Positions 6,094-13,450 of a DNA stretch of 64,000 nt are shown one piece after another. Numbering within the stretch: position 1 is the stretch's first letter; each line of letters opens with the position of its first letter. Source of the DNA: Escherichia coli (GTDB taxonomy: Bacteria > Pseudomonadota > Gammaproteobacteria > Enterobacterales > Enterobacteriaceae). Under the pieces are notes generated by a model. It made no database searches. It saw only the letters and a program-made list of their open reading frames with translations, and was not told the origin of the DNA. The stretch lies in the NCBI RefSeq assembly GCF_003991155.1, contig NZ_CP031293.1; one strand, written 5' to 3'. The translations under genes were made by a program, and so were the position numbers.

Positions 6094-7050
6094 ATGAACC
6101 CGATTGCAGTTACCCTACTCACCGGTTTTTTAGGCGCGGGCAAAACTACCCTGCTGCGCCATATTCTTAACGAACAGCACGGCTACAAGATTGCCGTGAT
6201 TGAAAACGAATTCGGCGAAGTCTCCGTTGATGATCAACTGATTGGCGACCGCGCCACGCAGATCAAAACGCTGACCAACGGCTGCATCTGCTGTTCGCGC
6301 TCCAACGAGCTGGAAGACGCACTACTCGACCTGCTGGATAATCTCGACAAGGGCAATATTCAGTTCGACCGTCTGGTCATTGAATGCACCGGCATGGCCG
6401 ATCCCGGCCCGATTATTCAGACCTTTTTCTCCCATGAGATTTTATGCCAGCGCTACCTGCTGGACGGCGTGATTGCGCTGGTGGATGCGGTACATGCCGA
6501 TGAGCAGATGAACCAGTTCACCATCGCCCAGTCACAGGTTGGCTACGCCGACCGTATTCTGCTGACTAAAACCGACGTCGCAGGCGAAGCAGAAAAACTG
6601 CGTGAACGCCTGGCGCGCATCAACGCCCGTGCACCGATCTACACCGTCACCCACGGCGACATCGACCTGGGCCTGCTGTTCAACACCAACGGTTTTATGC
6701 TGGAAGAGAACGTCGTCAGCACCAAACCGCGTTTCCACTTTATCGCGGACAAACAAAACGATATTTCGTCGATTGTGGTGGAACTGGATTACCCGGTAGA
6801 TATCAGCGAAGTTTCCCGCGTGATGGAAAACCTGCTGCTGGAGTCGGCGGATAAACTACTGCGTTACAAAGGGATGCTATGGATTGACGGCGAACCTAAT
6901 CGCCTGCTGTTCCAGGGCGTCCAACGCCTCTACAGCGCCGACTGGGACCGCCCGTGGGGCGATGAAACACCGCATAGCACAATGGTGTTTATCGGGATTC
7001 AGCTGCCGGAGGATGAGATTCGGGCGGCGTTTGCGGGGTTGAGGAAGTAA
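6094..7050 (+). CDS. yjiA: CobW/P47K-family GTPase YjiA
   Basis: ATG at 6094 gives 318 aa MNPIAVTLLTGFLGAGKTTLL... with GTP-binding P-loop and CxCC motif; ORF track 6010..7050 extends upstream in frame. Confidence 0.85.
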   Translation: MNPIAVTLLTGFLGAGKTTLLRHILNEQHGYKIAVIENEFGEVSVDDQLIGDRATQIKTLTNGCICCSRSNELEDALLDLLDNLDKGNIQFDRLVIECTGMADPGPIIQTFFSHEILCQRYLLDGVIALVDAVHADEQMNQFTIAQSQVGYADRILLTKTDVAGEAEKLRERLARINARAPIYTVTHGDIDLGLLFNTNGFMLEENVVSTKPRFHFIADKQNDISSIVVELDYPVDISEVSRVMENLLLESADKLLRYKGMLWIDGEPNRLLFQGVQRLYSADWDRPWGDETPHSTMVFIGIQLPEDEIRAAFAGLRK

Positions 7051-7083: not shown

Positions 7084-7386
7084 TTATTTTTTGTTCTGAT
7101 CGCGCAGCATCGCTTCACGTAAAATTGCGTTCAGGCGAGTTTGATAGCCTTTACCTGGTCGCTTCAACCATTCCATCACATCAGAATCAATACGCACCGA
7201 GGCCTGAGTTTTCAATGGCCGATAAAACTTACCGCGTTCTGCGTTAGACCATTGCTCATCGCTGGAAGGTGGGATATCACTGTAATCAATATCTTCGTCG
7301 GATTTATTCGCCAGCGCCTTCAGTTCGGCCTCATGCTGCACATCGAGTGTAGAGGAGGTCCCTCGTTTATGTTTAACCATGCTCAT
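7084..7386 (-). CDS. BrnA-like antitoxin (ribbon-helix-helix type)
   Basis: ATG at 7386 (MSMVKHKRGTSSTLD...); downstream of and overlapping the BrnT-like gene by 14 bp in the toxin-first order typical of brnTA. Confidence 0.6.
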   Translation of the reverse strand: MSMVKHKRGTSSTLDVQHEAELKALANKSDEDIDYSDIPPSSDEQWSNAERGKFYRPLKTQASVRIDSDVMEWLKRPGKGYQTRLNAILREAMLRDQNKK

Positions 7387-7654
7387 AGCGATTCCTCTCT
7401 TTACGATCTGCTTTTCGTGCACTGATGATTCGAATAATTTCATTTCCGCTTTCGAAACGGATGGTATGCGCAACCAGAATAACCACGATGCCGTAAACCA
7501 GGCCGATTGTCTGCCAGCGATACTCACCGTTTTCTATGCGTTCTTGCTGTGACAAATGTTGTGGATCATCAAACACTAACACCGCATCTTCAAAGCGGAT
7601 GCCATGTTTCACCCGATTACTTTTGGCCTTGTTTGCATCCCATTCAAACTCCAT
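7373..7654 (-). CDS. BrnT-like toxin (DUF497 ribonuclease toxin family)
   Basis: Translation MEFEWDANKAKSNRVKHGIRFEDA... matches the conserved N-terminal signature of BrnT/DUF497 toxins; start taken at ATG 7654 (in-frame alternatives at 7660 and 7669). Confidence 0.65.
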   Translation of the reverse strand: MEFEWDANKAKSNRVKHGIRFEDAVLVFDDPQHLSQQERIENGEYRWQTIGLVYGIVVILVAHTIRFESGNEIIRIISARKADRKERNRYEHG

Positions 7655-7856
7655 TGGCATAGTTGCCATCCCTAATTGTATATACAAAAATGTATCTACA
7701 ATTATTCTGCAATTATAGCGTTGATGTTGGAAATAGCATCACGTTTTGGATAATCAACCATGAAATTGACAATGAGTGAGTTGGACTTGATTCATCCAAT
7801 AGAATTTCTCGCCTGACATGGCACACTAAACACCTCGCTGTCGTTAAGGGATTACC

Positions 7857-9023
7857 GTGAAAAACTACAAAGTCATTACCCCGCTTTTTCCTACCTATGC
7901 GCAAGTTAAGGCTATGATGAAAGCCGTCTCAGGCTATTCCCTGAAAGCGGTGCGCAATATGATTACTGCCATTCACGAGCAAACCGGTACGCCGCAAAAA
8001 CCCGTTGACTGGTCAGAACCCGACCTGTGGATCAGCGAGCGCTTAACGGGTGAAGATGCCGACATCGCCCGTCGTATTTGGGATACCGATAATCACATCT
8101 TGAACCCGCGCCACAGCTACGGCTGCTACTTATTCCTCAACTATCCCCAGTTTGAGCTGATGGAAAGCACACCAGATGATATCTGGCAGCCCACCTCGCG
8201 CGGGCAAAAATTCCTGCAAGATGACGAAAAAACGCTGCGTTCACTGGACGACCAGGAAGGCATTCTGCAACTGCTTGAGCTGCTGGCTGGCCGGGAAATG
8301 TCGCGCCGCGCCGATTTATTGCCGGAATGGCAGGCCTTTTTGCATCAGCATTCGAAATTCGCGTCAGCAAGTTCAGTGAAAAGCACGCTCTACTCCCGTC
8401 TCTATAACCTTATCGACCGTGACATGGTTAACCGTGAAGGCATGAGCTATCGCATCACCGATACCGGGCGCGCCTGGCTTGGAAAAGCGTTGCCAGCACG
8501 AAAAAGCGATCCGCGTAAAGAGCTGTTGGAAGCGGTAAAACGCTATAACGAACAGCAAAAAGAGCTGCTGCGCGAACAAATCAGCACGATGAACCCGTAC
8601 AAATTTGAGCAACTGGTTGGTCAATTACTGGAAGCAATGGGCTACGAGCAGGTCGAAGTGACCAAAGCCTCAGGCGACAAAGGTGTGGACGTGATTGGTC
8701 AGGTGCAGGTCGGCATCACCACTATTACCGAAGTGGTGCAGGTCAAAAGAATGCAGAACACTATCACTCGCCCGTATATCGACCAGTTGCGCGGGGCGTT
8801 GCCTTACCACAAAGCCATTCGCGGTACGCTCATCACCACCGGGAAATTTGCGGCGAAATGTGCAGAAGCGGCGCTCTTTCCGGGTGCCGCGCCCATTACG
8901 CTTATCGACGGCGATCGTTTACTGGAACTGTTAATCGAAAATAACGTCGGCATTCGCCGCAGCAATGCAGTGGAATTGCTGGATGTGGATTTGCAGTTGT
9001 TTGATGAGCTGGAGATGGATTAA
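7857..9023 (+). CDS. Mrr-family (type IV-like) restriction endonuclease with extended N-terminal region
   Basis: C-terminal ~130 aa carry the Mrr catalytic core (GDKGVDVIG ... EVVQVKR ... LITTGKF ... LIDGDRL); winged-helix-like segment (SYRITDTGRAWL) upstream; start codon uncertain (GTG 7857 or internal ATG). Confidence 0.65.
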   Translation: MKNYKVITPLFPTYAQVKAMMKAVSGYSLKAVRNMITAIHEQTGTPQKPVDWSEPDLWISERLTGEDADIARRIWDTDNHILNPRHSYGCYLFLNYPQFELMESTPDDIWQPTSRGQKFLQDDEKTLRSLDDQEGILQLLELLAGREMSRRADLLPEWQAFLHQHSKFASASSVKSTLYSRLYNLIDRDMVNREGMSYRITDTGRAWLGKALPARKSDPRKELLEAVKRYNEQQKELLREQISTMNPYKFEQLVGQLLEAMGYEQVEVTKASGDKGVDVIGQVQVGITTITEVVQVKRMQNTITRPYIDQLRGALPYHKAIRGTLITTGKFAAKCAEAALFPGAAPITLIDGDRLLELLIENNVGIRRSNAVELLDVDLQLFDELEMD

Positions 9024-9067
9024 AGGGCGAAATCTGCCGCCTCTACCATTACAATACGGAGTTCATC

Positions 9068-9244
9068 GTGGTCAAAGCACCAACTAAAAAAGCCAAAGCA
9101 AAGAAAAGCTCTGAAGAAACATTATGTGATACCACAAACCAATTTCGTGGTAGCGTTGAGTCCTCCGAATACAAGCACGTGGTGTTAAGCCTCGTGCTCC
9201 AGAAACTCATCAGCGATAAGTTTGAAGCACGCCGCAAAAAATGA
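9068..9244 (+). pseudogene. Truncated 5' fragment of a type I R-M methyltransferase gene (hsdM N-terminal domain only)
   Basis: Reading frame VVKAPTKKAKAKKSSEETLCDTTNQFRGSVESSEYKHVVLSLVLQKLISDKFEARRKK-stop; the SEYKHVV...ISD motif is the hallmark of HsdM N-terminal domains; frame ends after 58 codons. Confidence 0.55.
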
Positions 9245-9903
9245 TTGCCGAAGCGTTAAAAGCTGATGGGATGGAAGAAATTTATTTTTCTGGCGACAAA
9301 AAAGCGGAATCTATCGATATTTTTGACGAAGATTATCTGGCGCGAATTAACAAGATCAAACTTCCAGCAACGAAGATCCTGTTATTACAAAAATTACTGG
9401 AAAAAGCGATCAGCGAGTTCAGGAAAGTGAACCAGTTGCAAGGGATTAACTTCACCCGCCGCTTCCAGGCGATTATAGATCGTTATAATGAGCGGCGAGA
9501 AGATGATGTACTCAACGGTGAAGAATTCGATACATTCAGTCAGGAAATGATTGATATTATCTATGATATTAAAACCGAAATGGGCACCTGGGCCGATTTA
9601 GGCATTGATATTGAAGAAAAAGCCTTTTTCGACATTCTTGCTCATATGCGCGATAAATATCAGTTCACCTATGACGATGAAAAAATGCTGTCACTGGCAA
9701 AAGAGATGAAAAGCGTTGTTGACAACACATCGAAATATCCTGACTGGAGTAAACGCGATGATATTAAAGCGAAACTGAAAGTTGAACTTATTCTGCTTCT
9801 ACACAAGCATAAGTTCCCGCCAGTAGCGAATGATGATGTTTATATGGGTGTGCTGGCACAGGCAGAGAATTTTAAAGAACATCATATGAGTGCTTTAAAT
9901 TAA
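9241..9903 (+). pseudogene. 3' fragment of a type I R-M restriction subunit gene (hsdR C-terminal DUF3387-like domain)
   Basis: 220-aa ORF with EEKAFFDIL ... DWSKRDDIKAKLKVELILLLHKHKFPP, the conserved C-terminal domain pattern of HsdR; no helicase or nuclease domains upstream; begins in a different frame immediately at the stop of the hsdM fragment. Confidence 0.6.
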
Positions 9904-9910
9904 TTATGAA

Positions 9911-9936
9911 GGCCGGATACACTTTGTTATCCGGCC
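9911..9936 (+). terminator. Stem-loop (REP-like palindrome) after the hsdR remnant
   Basis: GGCCGGATA ... TATCCGGCC 9-bp inverted repeat; weak T-tract, so terminator function uncertain. Confidence 0.35.
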
Positions 9937-10024
9937 ATTCTGAATTAACGTTAATTTCTCTTCCAGATCTTTCCAGTAACGCTTTTATTATTTTCTATTT
10001 TTAGCTGGACTTTCCCTGTATTTA

Positions 10025-10040
10025 CTGATGATATATCCAG
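10025..10040 (+). promoter_or_regulatory. Putative LexA box (CTG-N10-CAG) in the symE promoter
   Basis: CTGATGATATATCCAG about 80 bp upstream of the symE ATG; symE is a known SOS-regulated gene. Confidence 0.55.
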
Positions 10041-10047
10041 GTATTTA

Positions 10048-10124
10048 GCGCGGTGCGAATGTGCGCCAACACACCCGCACCGCTCATCACAATCCCTATT
10101 TCACGAGAATAGTAATCATGACTG
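10048..10124 (-). ncRNA. symR: SymR-like cis-antisense sRNA overlapping the symE 5' end (position inferred)
   Basis: By analogy with K-12 symE/symR; a TAGAAT -10-like hexamer lies on the minus strand just inside the symE coding start. Exact ends not determinable from sequence alone. Confidence 0.35.
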
Positions 10125-10456
10125 ACACGCATTCTATTGCACAACCGTTCGAAGCAGAAGTCTCCCCGGCAAATAACCGTCAATTAACCGTGAGTTATGC
10201 GAGCCGCTACCCGGATTACAGCCGTATTCCCGCCATCACCCTGAAAGGTCAGTGGCTGGAAACCGCCGGTTTTGCTACCGGCACGGCGGTAGATGTCAAA
10301 GTGATGGAAGGCTGTATTGTCCTCACCGCCCAACCACCCGCCGCCGAAGAGAGCGAACTGATGCAGTCACTGCGCCAGGTGTGCAAGCTGTCGGCGCGTA
10401 AACAAAGGCAGGTGCAGGATTTTATTGGGGTGATTAGTAGCAAAACGCCACGCTAA
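10118..10456 (+). CDS. symE: SOS-induced toxin-like protein SymE
   Basis: ATG at 10118: [48 protein letters not shown]... recognised as SymE (YjiW). Confidence 0.85.
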
Positions 10457-10497
10457 GTTTCTCTCCCCTTCCCCATACGGAAAGGGGAATTGCCCCC

Positions 10498-10662
10498 TCA
10501 CTCCACATCTTCCCTGCGTAACCCAATATCCCTCAACCGCTCATCACTCATCTGCTGTAACACCCGCCGGGCCTGCATTTGCCGCCGCCAACGCCTCACT
10601 GCCTGCCAGAGTTGCACAAGTCCAATAAACGGTGCTTTAGCTTTGTTTTCGTGAAATTCCAT
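10498..10662 (-). CDS. yjiS: DUF1127 small protein YjiS
   Basis: Not in the ORF track (54 aa); minus-strand translation MEFHENKAKAPFIGLVQLWQAVRRWRRQMQARRVLQQMSDERLRDIGLRREDVE with the DUF1127 signature. Confidence 0.8.
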   Translation of the reverse strand: MEFHENKAKAPFIGLVQLWQAVRRWRRQMQARRVLQQMSDERLRDIGLRREDVE

Positions 10663-10838
10663 CTGCTGCCTCCTCATCTTTCAGAGGCTTCATCATCCGC
10701 CTTCTGGCAGCTCACAATACAGATGCAAATATTAGTTTTATTTAACATACAGACAGGTTAAAACAGCATCTGCATCCGGTTTTTTAGCCTCATCTGTACC
10801 GGTTTTTCCCTCTGTATGGTCCAAATAAGGAATACAGC

Positions 10839-12251
10839 ATGACGCGTTATCAACATCTGGCGACTCTGCTTGCCGAGCGGATTGAGCAAGGGCTGTATCG
10901 TCACGGGGAGAAATTGCCGTCGGTGCGCAGCTTGAGTCAGGAGCACGGCGTCAGTATCAGCACCGTGCAGCAGGCGTACCAGACGCTGGAGACGATGAAG
11001 CTCATCACTCCGCAGCCGCGTTCGGGTTATTTTGTCGCACAACGGAAAGCCCAGCCGCCAGTACCGCCGATGACGCGTCCGGTGCAGCGCCCGGTGGAAA
11101 TTACCCAGTGGGATCAGGTGCTGGATATGCTGGAGGCGCATAGCGACAGTTCCATTGTTCCGTTAAGTAAAAGCACGCCGGATGTCGAAACGCCCAGCCT
11201 GAAACCGCTGTGGCGGGAGCTAAGCCGGGTGGTGCAGCATAATCTGCAAACCGTTCTCGGTTATGACTTGTTAGCCGGTCAGCGAGTGTTGCGAGAGCAG
11301 ATTGCCCGCCTGATGCTCGACAGCGGCTCGGTGGTCACCGCCGATGACATCATCATTACTAGCGGCTGCCATAACTCGATGTCGCTAGCGTTAATGGCGG
11401 TGTGTAAACCGGGCGATATTGTCGCGGTCGAATCCCCCTGTTATTACGGTTCGATGCAGATGCTGCGCGGCATGGGCGTGAAAGTGATTGAAATCCCCAC
11501 CGATCCAGAAACAGGCATCAGCGTTGAAGCGCTGGAACTGGCGCTGGAGCAGTGGCCGATTAAAGGCATCATTCTGGTGCCAAACTGTAATAATCCGCTG
11601 GGATTTATTATGCCGGACGCGCGCAAACGGGCCGTTCTCTCTCTCGCTCAGCGTCATGATATTGTGATTTTTGAAGATGATGTCTACGGCGAACTGGCAA
11701 CGGAGTATCCGCGCCCGCGGACCATTCATTCCTGGGATATCGACGGGCGAGTGCTGTTGTGCAGCTCGTTCAGTAAAAGTATTGCTCCAGGCCTGCGCGT
11801 GGGTTGGGTCGCACCGGGGCGTTATCACGATAAACTGATGCATATGAAATACGCCATCAGCAGCTTTAATGTGCCGTCCACGCAAATGGCGGCGGCAACG
11901 TTTGTGCTGGAAGGTCACTATCATCGCCATATCCGGCGGATGCGGCAGATCTATCAGCGCAATTTGGCGCTTTATACCTGCTGGATACGGGAATATTTTC
12001 CCTGCGAAATCTGTATTACGCGCCCGAAAGGCGGATTTTTACTGTGGATAGAATTGCCTGAACAGGTCGATATGGTTTGCGTTGCGCGGCAGCTATACCG
12101 CATAAAAATCCAGGTGGCGGCAGGCTCGATTTTCTCAGCTTCCGGCAAATACCGTAATTGTCTGCGCATCAACTGCGCTTTGCCGCTCAGCGAAACCTAT
12201 CGCGAAGCACTGAAGCAAATTGGCGAAGCCGTGTATCGGGCAATGGAATGA
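10839..12251 (+). CDS. yjiR: MocR/GntR-family PLP-dependent transcriptional regulator
   Basis: 470 aa; N-terminal GntR-type HTH (LPSVRSLSQEHGVSISTVQQAY) plus aminotransferase-like domain. Confidence 0.85.
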   Translation: MTRYQHLATLLAERIEQGLYRHGEKLPSVRSLSQEHGVSISTVQQAYQTLETMKLITPQPRSGYFVAQRKAQPPVPPMTRPVQRPVEITQWDQVLDMLEAHSDSSIVPLSKSTPDVETPSLKPLWRELSRVVQHNLQTVLGYDLLAGQRVLREQIARLMLDSGSVVTADDIIITSGCHNSMSLALMAVCKPGDIVAVESPCYYGSMQMLRGMGVKVIEIPTDPETGISVEALELALEQWPIKGIILVPNCNNPLGFIMPDARKRAVLSLAQRHDIVIFEDDVYGELATEYPRPRTIHSWDIDGRVLLCSSFSKSIAPGLRVGWVAPGRYHDKLMHMKYAISSFNVPSTQMAAATFVLEGHYHRHIRRMRQIYQRNLALYTCWIREYFPCEICITRPKGGFLLWIELPEQVDMVCVARQLYRIKIQVAAGSIFSASGKYRNCLRINCALPLSETYREALKQIGEAVYRAME

Positions 12252-12368
12252 ATTCGAAATAGTGGCGAGCCCCCTGATTTCCTCTCACGAATAGCGTGTG
12301 ACTCGTTTTATCTTTGCAGGGTCATCTCCACGTTCCAGTATGGCTTAGGCAAATTGCGCTTCGTTCAT

Positions 12369-12467
12369 GCCGGATGCCATGTGAACGCCTTACCAGGTCT
12401 ACAAAATTTTTAAAGTTCAATATATTGAATGGGTTATGTAGACCTGATAAGCGTAGCACATCAGGCA
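12369..12467. repeat. REP/BIME-like pair of inverted palindromic units
   Basis: GCCGGATGCCATGTGAACGCCTTACCAGGTCTAC and an inverted partner GTAGACCTGATAAGCGTAGCACATCAGGCA in the yjiR-rpnD intergenic region. Confidence 0.55.
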
Positions 12468-12493
12468 GCTTTGCGTTTGTCATCGGCCTCTGA

Positions 12494-13450
12494 TTAGTAC
12501 TCGATCCATGGATCGCGCTTGCTTTCAGGCAAGGGCTGATCTAATGCCTGCATTTGCTCTGCCGAAAGTCCGGTATATCGTTGTATCCATTCAGGATCCG
12601 CCCCATTCTGCAACAACAATCGGAGGAGGCTCTTTTCCCCTTCTTCTTTCCCTTCTTTCCTCCCCCTCTCCCTTCCCAACAGCCATCCATCATTATGAAT
12701 TCGCTCTGCAATCGTCATTATTCGCTCCCTGTGTTGTGGCATTCGACGGATAAGTTCGCTGATAAACTCATTAAAACGCGCTTCATCGCCAGTCAGTAAA
12801 ATGTAATTTAACAGCGCGGTTATCTGGCTGTCATTAGCGCACCCTGTAACCAGTAATACTGCCAGTTGATCAATAAGCCCCATTAGATCGCGCTGGCGAA
12901 TATGCTTTTGGATCAACTCCAGCAGGGCGACTCTGCGATGCTGCACAATCTCGTCGTCTGGCACGACAGTGACATCCACCAGCGGGAACGCTGCGGTATA
13001 AAGCTTCCGTGCGGTAGCCGGGTCGGCAAATTCATCCAGCCAGCACAAAGACCAGGGGTAAGGACTACGGCTACCGTGATAAAACAGCATCGGGATGACC
13101 AGCGGTAGCGGCCGGCGTTTATCATGCTCGATATGGCGCTGCATCACCGCCATGGAATATCGCATCAGGCGAAAGGCCATATGGATATCCTCGCGGCTCT
13201 GATGTTCAATCACCACATAAATATAGCCATCTCCTTCGCGGGTCTTTACCGACCACAGAATATCGGAATGTAGCGCCCGCAATTTTTCATCGACAAAGCT
13301 GGCGTATTCCAGTTTTAAGCTGTCGAGATCGCACAGTTCACGTAAATCTTTGGGTAAGTGGATCTCCATAAAATCCCGCGCGGTGTCAGGGTGGGTGAGA
13401 AAAGATTTAAATAATGCGTCATGCGGCGTGCTGGTCGTGAAGTTTGTCAT
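12494..13450 (-). CDS. rpnD: Rpn-family recombination-promoting nuclease (PD-(D/E)xK, transposase_31-like)
   Basis: 318-aa intact ORF with Rpn/YhgA-like N-terminus ([26 protein letters not shown]). Confidence 0.75.

Follow-up and report, generated by a model that had tools for sequence, protein, structure and literature searches.

A common natural allele of symE/symR, with its known control elements apparently in place, beside a deleted type I restriction system in the Escherichia coli immigration control region

The tisB/istR-1 and dinQ/agrB pairs resemble symE/symR in that a LexA-repressed gene has its translation held down by a constitutive small RNA. TisB/DinQ-type toxins are small membrane peptides, whereas SymE, 112 aa long in the sequence described here, is a soluble protein with an AbrB fold, and IstR-1 is encoded divergently and is not a true cis-antisense RNA over the ribosome-binding site. 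The closest described system is the pair of Escherichia coli K-12, symE (yjiW, b4347) and symR (ryjC, b4625), which are annotated in MG1655 at 4579499-4579840 and 4579835-4579911, respectively. In K-12, the symE mRNA is induced by mitomycin C with a peak at 60-90 min, SymR is very stable and about 10-fold in excess over the symE mRNA, without SymR there is about 3-fold more mRNA and more than 7-fold more protein, and SymE is degraded by Lon (Kawano et al. 2007). The ORF of symE also contains the symR promoter (Kawano, Aravind & Storz 2007), and two silent changes, CATTCT to CACTCC, abolished SymR in K-12 (Kawano et al. 2007). Overexpression of SymE inhibits growth (Kawano et al. 2007; PMC11894785), and the original proposal was that SymE promotes RNA cleavage (Kawano et al. 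2007). Kawano et al. 2007 cite Fernandez De Henestrosa 2000 as the source for a LexA binding site, and for induction by damage, at K-12 yjiW. Induction of symE in K-12 can be weak, with values of 1.5-fold with AZT and a 2.5-fold lexA dependence.

The window, by which the whole 64-kb stretch of DNA that was analysed is meant, is a piece of E. coli chromosome, and its positions 9900-10700 are 100% identical to strain 2016C-3878 in a megablast comparison with 5426 complete E. coli genomes. A preliminary description, made from the letters of the window alone, had proposed that symE is retained with a LexA-box-like operator and a likely antisense symR, and had named an alignment to K-12 symE/symR as the check. 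In that alignment, a block of 449 bp at 9987-10435 matches K-12 at 92.9%, and all of the named elements are present and collinear with K-12 by alignment, Rfam, and Pfam. The coordinates and sequence strings of the description (CTGATGATATATCCAG and TAGAAT) were also right on direct reading of 9700-10800. The two loci have the same pair in the same order, with a LexA box, 4 nt, and a 77-nt antisense region, a 6-nt overlap of the antisense region with the ORF, and the symR -10 hexamer in codons 5-7 (DNA identity 92.9%, protein identity 93%). They differ by nine substitutions in SymR and the 5' UTR, mostly in the hairpin-1 loop opposite the Shine-Dalgarno sequence, by the length of SymE (112 aa in the window and 113 aa in K-12), and by the neighbours of symE, which are an hsdR remnant and yjiS in the window and hsdS and mcrB in K-12. 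A variable segment of defence genes lies between the anchors yjiA, which ends at 7050, and yjiN, which follows mdtM in the 2016C-3878 annotation transferred to window coordinates; this is the arrangement of the immigration control region (ICR). The window thus very probably carries the chromosomal symE/symR of the ICR, in a natural allele that is common and lacks none of the known control elements. The analysis shows for each part that it is present and intact, together with its geometry and orthology, and shows how frequent the allele is in the population. The locus is already known and nothing in it is new; the raw-sequence reading, done without tools, correctly recognised a known SOS-regulated antisense pair, and symR and the LexA box are annotation that PGAP omits in 2016C-3878.

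The symE coding sequence runs on the + strand from an ATG at 10118 to a stop at 10456 and is an open ORF of 112 aa, so that its retention was borne out; it is annotated by PGAP in 2016C-3878 as WP_000132633.1. The product belongs to the AbrB/MazE-like SymE family, with residues 20-71 matching the full Pfam profile PF08845 SymE_toxin (positions 1-54 of 54) with a score of 75 bits (cut-off 29). Of 109 residues aligned with K-12 SymE, 101 are the same (93%), and synonymous codon differences are at least as numerous as non-synonymous ones in all seven pairwise comparisons with the window allele. By its likeness to K-12, the protein is expected to be active in the strain of the window. The Shine-Dalgarno core was placed by allele comparison at 10105-10107 on the + strand, as GAG in CACGAGAAUAG; K-12 has GGAG, and other E. 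coli alleles have AAGG or AGGG. The C-terminal tail reads …GVISSKTPR in the window versus …GVIAGKQKVA in K-12, and the divergence of the last ~7 codons reflects the loss of homology to the K-12, O157, and NU14 haplotypes from about 10436 onwards. The right-hand breakpoint of the ICR haplotypes hence falls inside the last ~7 codons of symE (10436-10456), and the tail of SymE is haplotype-specific, being SSKTPR when yjiS follows and AGKQKVA when mcrB or GmrSD follows. A hairpin at 10464-10488, between symE and yjiS, is not claimed as a terminator (z -1.4, no better than shuffles).

The antisense gene, which the preliminary description had offered as likely, was found on the minus strand (10047-10123), where the gene of a 77-nt cis-antisense RNA matches Rfam family RF01809 over the complete model, positions 1-77 of 77. 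In the Rfam scan of 8000-13000, the match scored 88.9 bits against a gathering threshold of 61 (E 5.7e-17), and it is the only gathering-level Rfam match in the whole 64 kb. Sub-threshold matches to ES036 (12403-12445) and to archaeal snoRNA models (~10660-10701) were dismissed as chance. The 77-mer is predicted to fold into two hairpins at -37.6 kcal/mol (z -5.06), and none of 200 shuffled sequences was as stable. The 6-nt overlap between symR and symE is the same as in the annotated MG1655 pair. SymR covers the symE 5' UTR, the Shine-Dalgarno core, which lies opposite the apical loop of hairpin 1, the AUG at 10118-10120, and codon 2, and it is cis-encoded, so its complementarity to the symE mRNA is perfect. 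Pairing of an RNA over the ribosome-binding site or start codon, the mark of toxin-antitoxin systems of type I, is what this position provides. The 3' hairpin of SymR is followed by GCGCUAAAUACC and not by a U-run, as in K-12; only 4 nt separate the 3' end of SymR from the LexA box, and the manner of 3'-end formation is not obvious from the sequence. Given the identity to K-12, a full-length symR transcript would be expected in the strain of the window.

The minus-strand hexamer TAGAAT, which had been noted just inside the symE start as the place where a SymR promoter is expected, is present at 10136-10131 (ATTCTA on the + strand at 10131-10136). It lies in symE codons 5-7, with its 3' end 7 nt upstream of the SymR 5' end at 10123, and it corresponds to the K-12 symR -10 element that was inactivated by Kawano et al. 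2007. Positions 10130-10135 of the window read CATTCT, and the changes made by those authors would turn the minus-strand TAGAAT into TGGAGT. The alignment of 10118-10183, the -10 element included, is identical to K-12. The -35 element is poor, being TTCTGC at a spacing of 17 nt when read by eye, and neither a symR promoter nor an intrinsic terminator was called by simple sigma-70 and terminator scans of 9850-10750. Simple consensus scans are too strict for weak or non-canonical elements, and the promoter was for this reason assigned by K-12 identity; its function is likewise presumed from that identity and not from agreement with a consensus.

By K-12 identity, LexA bound to the box at 10023-10042 would repress symE transcription, and DNA damage would lead to LexA cleavage and production of the symE mRNA. 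SymR would be made constitutively from the TAGAAT promoter in symE codons 5-7 and would pair with the symE 5' UTR, Shine-Dalgarno sequence, AUG, and codon 2, blocking translation and lowering the mRNA. Any SymE that escapes would be removed by Lon, and accumulated SymE would inhibit growth, for which current evidence favours non-specific DNA binding and nucleoid condensation over RNA cleavage. It is on this last step that the elements may be real and yet the pair not a toxin-antitoxin system, with SymE an SOS-induced nucleoid-associated protein and SymR its translational governor, a reading to which we would give about an even chance. The MG1655 RefSeq annotation names the product "nucleoid-associated protein SymE". 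In the account of Thompson et al. 2022 given by the 2024 review PMC11894785, SymE is without endoribonuclease (RNase) activity, binds DNA non-specifically, and compacts the nucleoid on overexpression. Against this reading, overexpressed SymE is still growth-inhibitory and SymR still prevents SymE synthesis, which is type I toxin-antitoxin behaviour, and both PGAP and Pfam keep toxin or endoribonuclease names. The choice between a toxin and a nucleoid-associated protein is a dispute over function and label and not over the content of the window. The preliminary statement that an SOS-controlled toxin/antisense pair appears intact accordingly holds for symE, symR, and the operator, all of which are present, while its word "toxin" is contested by the RefSeq name and by PMC11894785.

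The region to the left of symE holds, in the 2016C-3878 annotation by PGAP, brnA/brnT at 7084-7660 on the minus strand, followed on the + strand by an intact gene for an Mrr-family (type IV-like) restriction endonuclease of 388 aa at 7857-9023 (Pfam Mrr_cat, 102.7 bits; intact also in PGAP). Next on the + strand is an hsdM remnant at 9068-9244 (PGAP pseudogene 9068-9241), which comprises the first ~58 codons of a type I methyltransferase and aligns to the 5' end of hsdM in E110019, and then an hsdR remnant at 9241-9903 (PGAP pseudogene 9235-9903) with the C-terminal 220 codons. The latter matches positions 125-328 of 329 of the Pfam profile PF11867 T1RH-like_C at 183 bits. To the right of symE and convergent with it, yjiS (DUF1127; PGAP and Pfam) lies at 10498-10662 on the minus strand and forms the right edge of the variable region. 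Further genes annotated by PGAP in 2016C-3878 are yjiA, yjiR, an Rpn nuclease, mdtM, and yjiN. The Rpn-family recombination-promoting nuclease gene (yjiP/yjiQ, rpnD; 12494-13450, minus strand) is an intact ORF of 318 aa in the window; in the K-12 derivative BW25113, the annotation gives the yjiP/yjiQ rpn gene as a pseudogene, interrupted by an internal stop. Among the toxin-antitoxin systems of the ICR, a review counts brnAT, symE-symR, and rpn. From yjiA, where K-12 homology ends at 7050, to yjiS, where it resumes at 10493, the window measures 3.4 kb versus ~16 kb in K-12, and in between only the 449-bp symE/symR cassette is shared with K-12.

The nearest intact haplotype is that of E110019, with brnTA, the Mrr-like gene, hsdM, hsdS, hsdR, symE, and yjiS. 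E110019, A36, and 13P477T share the haplotype of the window (brnTA, Mrr-like gene, type I system, symE of 112 aa, and yjiS) at ~96-97% identity and retain the 5.5 kb that is missing from it. By blastn against E110019, the window lacks 5,522 bp, which held the whole of hsdS and the greater part of both hsdM and hsdR, as had been claimed in more general terms for the neighbouring restriction genes. The two blastn blocks overlap at a junction of 13 nt, AAATGATTGCCGA, at 9239-9251 (no strand assigned); in the intact haplotype, this 13-mer stands near codon 58 of hsdM as AAATGATTGCCGA and, 220 codons before the end of hsdR, as AAATGATTGCAGA. On this pattern, the hsd loss reads as a single microhomology-mediated deletion of 5.5 kb. 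The deleted system was probably of type ID, an assignment reached by elimination, since the review finds types IA, IB, and ID at the ICR and never IC. The preliminary description had called the surrounding locus gutted. This stands for the type I hsdMSR genes and does not stand for the rest, in which the Mrr-family nuclease gene, brnTA, and rpn are intact; nor does it extend to mcrBC, which is outside this haplotype. A loss of mcrBC here was rejected because the intact haplotype of the window type, E110019, already has symE adjoining yjiS, and symE directly abuts yjiS in 917 genomes, some of which have an intact type I system.

Two observations concern the remnants themselves. At the junction, hsdM and hsdR are in the same frame, and the A-run before it has 6 A versus 7 in E110019; with the 6-A run, the truncated HsdM peptide therefore ends at a TGA overlapping an ATG (ATGA), and this ATG opens an ORF of 220 aa predicted to consist solely of the HsdR C-terminal T1RH-like_C domain. 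The 388-aa Mrr-like gene, intact in the lineage of the window, has an internal stop and is a pseudogene in E110019 (L003 4416-5582), in which the type I system is intact; the two have thus lost reciprocal restriction functions.

The deletion junction was found in 75 complete genomes, 70 of them at an identity of at least 99%, with human, cattle, chicken, dog, and wastewater sources on several continents, a distribution that indicates one successful lineage. Survival of symE/symR in these genomes needs no special explanation because the cassette is outside the deleted interval, and its "retention" after the hsd deletion has barely been tested by selection yet, the 70 deletion genomes being near-identical. 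A broader proposal makes the cassette a fixed linker that follows type I restriction systems at their 3' end and is functionally tied to them. Directly upstream of the cassette, a type I gene is found in 8 of 10 E. coli loci, the other two being the window, with its deleted remnant, and MSB1_1A, with an IS element. The upstream type I systems come in three arrangements, namely hsdRMS (K-12), a longer-S-subunit form (O157, ATCC 8739), and hsdM-S-R (window type), and on the opposite side of the cassette mcrBC, GmrSD, or yjiS is swapped in. We regard a functional tie of this kind as quite unlikely.

The putative symE operator is the LexA box TACTGATGATATATCCAGGT at 10023-10042 (no strand assigned), the orthologue of the K-12 yjiW/symE box TACTGATGATATATACAGGT. 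The CTG-N10-CAG core that had been reported upstream of symE was found by sequence search at 10025-10040 as CTGATGATATATCCAG within TACTGATGATATATCCAGGT, and the box ends 76 nt upstream of the symE ATG. The window and K-12 boxes have 19 of 20 bases in common, the sole change being A to C at 10037, the base before CAG. Thirteen reference boxes (uvrB, lexA-1, lexA-2, recN-1, recN-2, ruvA, recA, sulA, umuD, dinI, uvrD, uvrA/ssb, and dinB) were read from NC_000913.3. At the base before CAG they have C in seven (uvrB, lexA-2, recN-1, ruvA, dinI, uvrD, dinB), A in five, and T in one. With C the commonest base there, the idea of harm to the box from the A-to-C change was for the most part rejected. 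A modest weakening emerges only with a symmetrised matrix. The heterology index (HI) was calculated from a symmetrised Berg-von Hippel matrix built on the 13 K-12 boxes, and it is 10.27 for the window allele, 9.54 for the K-12 allele, and 2.3-8.7 for the reference boxes; with the same matrix the window box is therefore worse than the K-12 symE box and outside the range of the 13. The published HI of the K-12 symE box is 7.9, and SOS genes listed with it reach 13. The affinity of the C allele for LexA is predicted to be roughly two-fold below that of the K-12 box, and binding of LexA to it would be expected from K-12. A literature search for published SOS induction data on a C-allele strain (O157) found none.

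The motif alone was rejected as evidence of a LexA box, with the bare pattern at chance rate and a matrix p of ~0.1. The bare CTG-N10-CAG pattern occurs 14 times in the 64 kb versus 12.4 +/- 3.4 expected, which is no enrichment; a stricter TACTG-W-rich pattern was reached by chance in 27 of 100 shuffles; and the window box, the best-scoring site in the 64 kb, was yet matched by 3 of 30 shuffles. By score alone the putative box is weak and marginally significant, and its credibility comes from position and orthology, since it has the same position, 19 of 20 bases, and a CTG and CAG that are invariant in all nine intact alleles aligned, although the flanks vary. That the pattern is a chance match, leaving symE in this allele outside LexA control, could draw on the chance-level counts and on half-sites (CTGA and CTGG) of which neither is the consensus CTGT, but it appears very improbable given that the box is orthologous by position to the one at K-12 yjiW, where LexA binding and damage induction are cited by Kawano et al., that CTG and CAG are kept in every intact allele while their surroundings change, and that ruvA, a recognised SOS gene, has a box of two CTGG half-sites, also without CTGT. 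Immediately upstream, a block at 9999-10022 on the + strand is common to all symE haplotypes; in the alignment of 10 E. coli alleles, conservation starts at about TTTTTAGCTGGAC irrespective of the upstream gene. This block presumably holds the symE -35 region, with TGGACT at 10006-10011 as a candidate, and no strong + strand promoter was found by sigma-70 consensus scan of 9850-10750.

The distribution of the operator region was examined with the 36-mer at 10020-10055, which 2860 of the 5426 complete E. coli genomes contain, 1299 without a mismatch (O157:H7, ATCC 8739, and NU14 among them), 1473 with one mismatch (K-12 among them), and 88 with two mismatches. About 47% of the complete genomes are without the region, for example through IS1-associated deletions. 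A third allele of the box, ATGTCCAG, is present in A36 and 13P477T. Ten E. coli loci gave 8 distinct SymR sequences, all of which are predicted to keep two hairpins. Diversity by segment, computed on the eight full-length alleles, is highest (pi 0.17, with 11 of 34 sites segregating) in the SymR hairpin-1 loop opposite the symE Shine-Dalgarno region (10084-10117); pi is 0.02 in the terminator hairpin, 0.025 in the part of the ORF that holds the symR promoter, and 0 in the 6-nt symE/symR overlap, so that the loop is the most polymorphic part of the cassette while the stems and terminator hairpin are nearly invariant. Complementarity is automatically preserved despite this variation because SymR is cis-encoded. 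The variation would reduce cross-talk between alleles, and it may tune symE translation. Two insertions were also seen. In MSB1_1A (NZ_LR890288.1, L019 ~630-727), a K-12-like allele has ISKox3 inserted in its LexA box, in the left half, which leaves CAG, symR, and symE intact and amounts to a natural operator disruption. In LST200A (NZ_CP110858.1, L004 7001-7180), IS1 truncates symE after ~11 codons, with homology ending at window position 10151; the deletion runs through yjiR, the LexA box survives, and symR, itself complete, is orphaned as an antisense gene.

It could also be supposed that the locus is a relic not yet decayed, useless after the hsd deletion, with its weaker operator and Shine-Dalgarno sequence as early decay. 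An HI worse than that of K-12, a Shine-Dalgarno core reduced to GAG, the dispensability of symE in E. coli as a species, where only 2860 of 5426 genomes have the operator region, and the versions disrupted by IS1 in symE (LST200A) and by ISKox3 in the box (MSB1_1A) would all fit such a history. However, the C-allele box also stands beside intact type I systems (E110019, O157:H7, ATCC 8739, NU14), and the C allele therefore predates the hsd deletion and is unrelated to it; neither the symE ORF nor the symR promoter nor the SymR fold is impaired; and the genomes bearing the deletion are ~100% identical, with no decay visible. A relic thus seems most improbable, and the locus is better read as a common allele with its control elements in place.

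For the biology of E. coli, the C-allele operator is about as common as the K-12 allele, and the affinities of the two for LexA have apparently never been compared. If the cassette were indeed a fixed linker at the end of type I systems, the exchange of cassettes could use it as a homology anchor; alternatively, an SOS-induced, DNA-coating SymE could have a functional link to type I restriction, for instance as a shield for unmodified DNA following damage, and in the event of such a coupling, the persistence of symE/symR without hsd would be a natural uncoupling experiment. The natural operator knock-out in MSB1_1A and the orphan symR of LST200A could help to probe the function of SymE.
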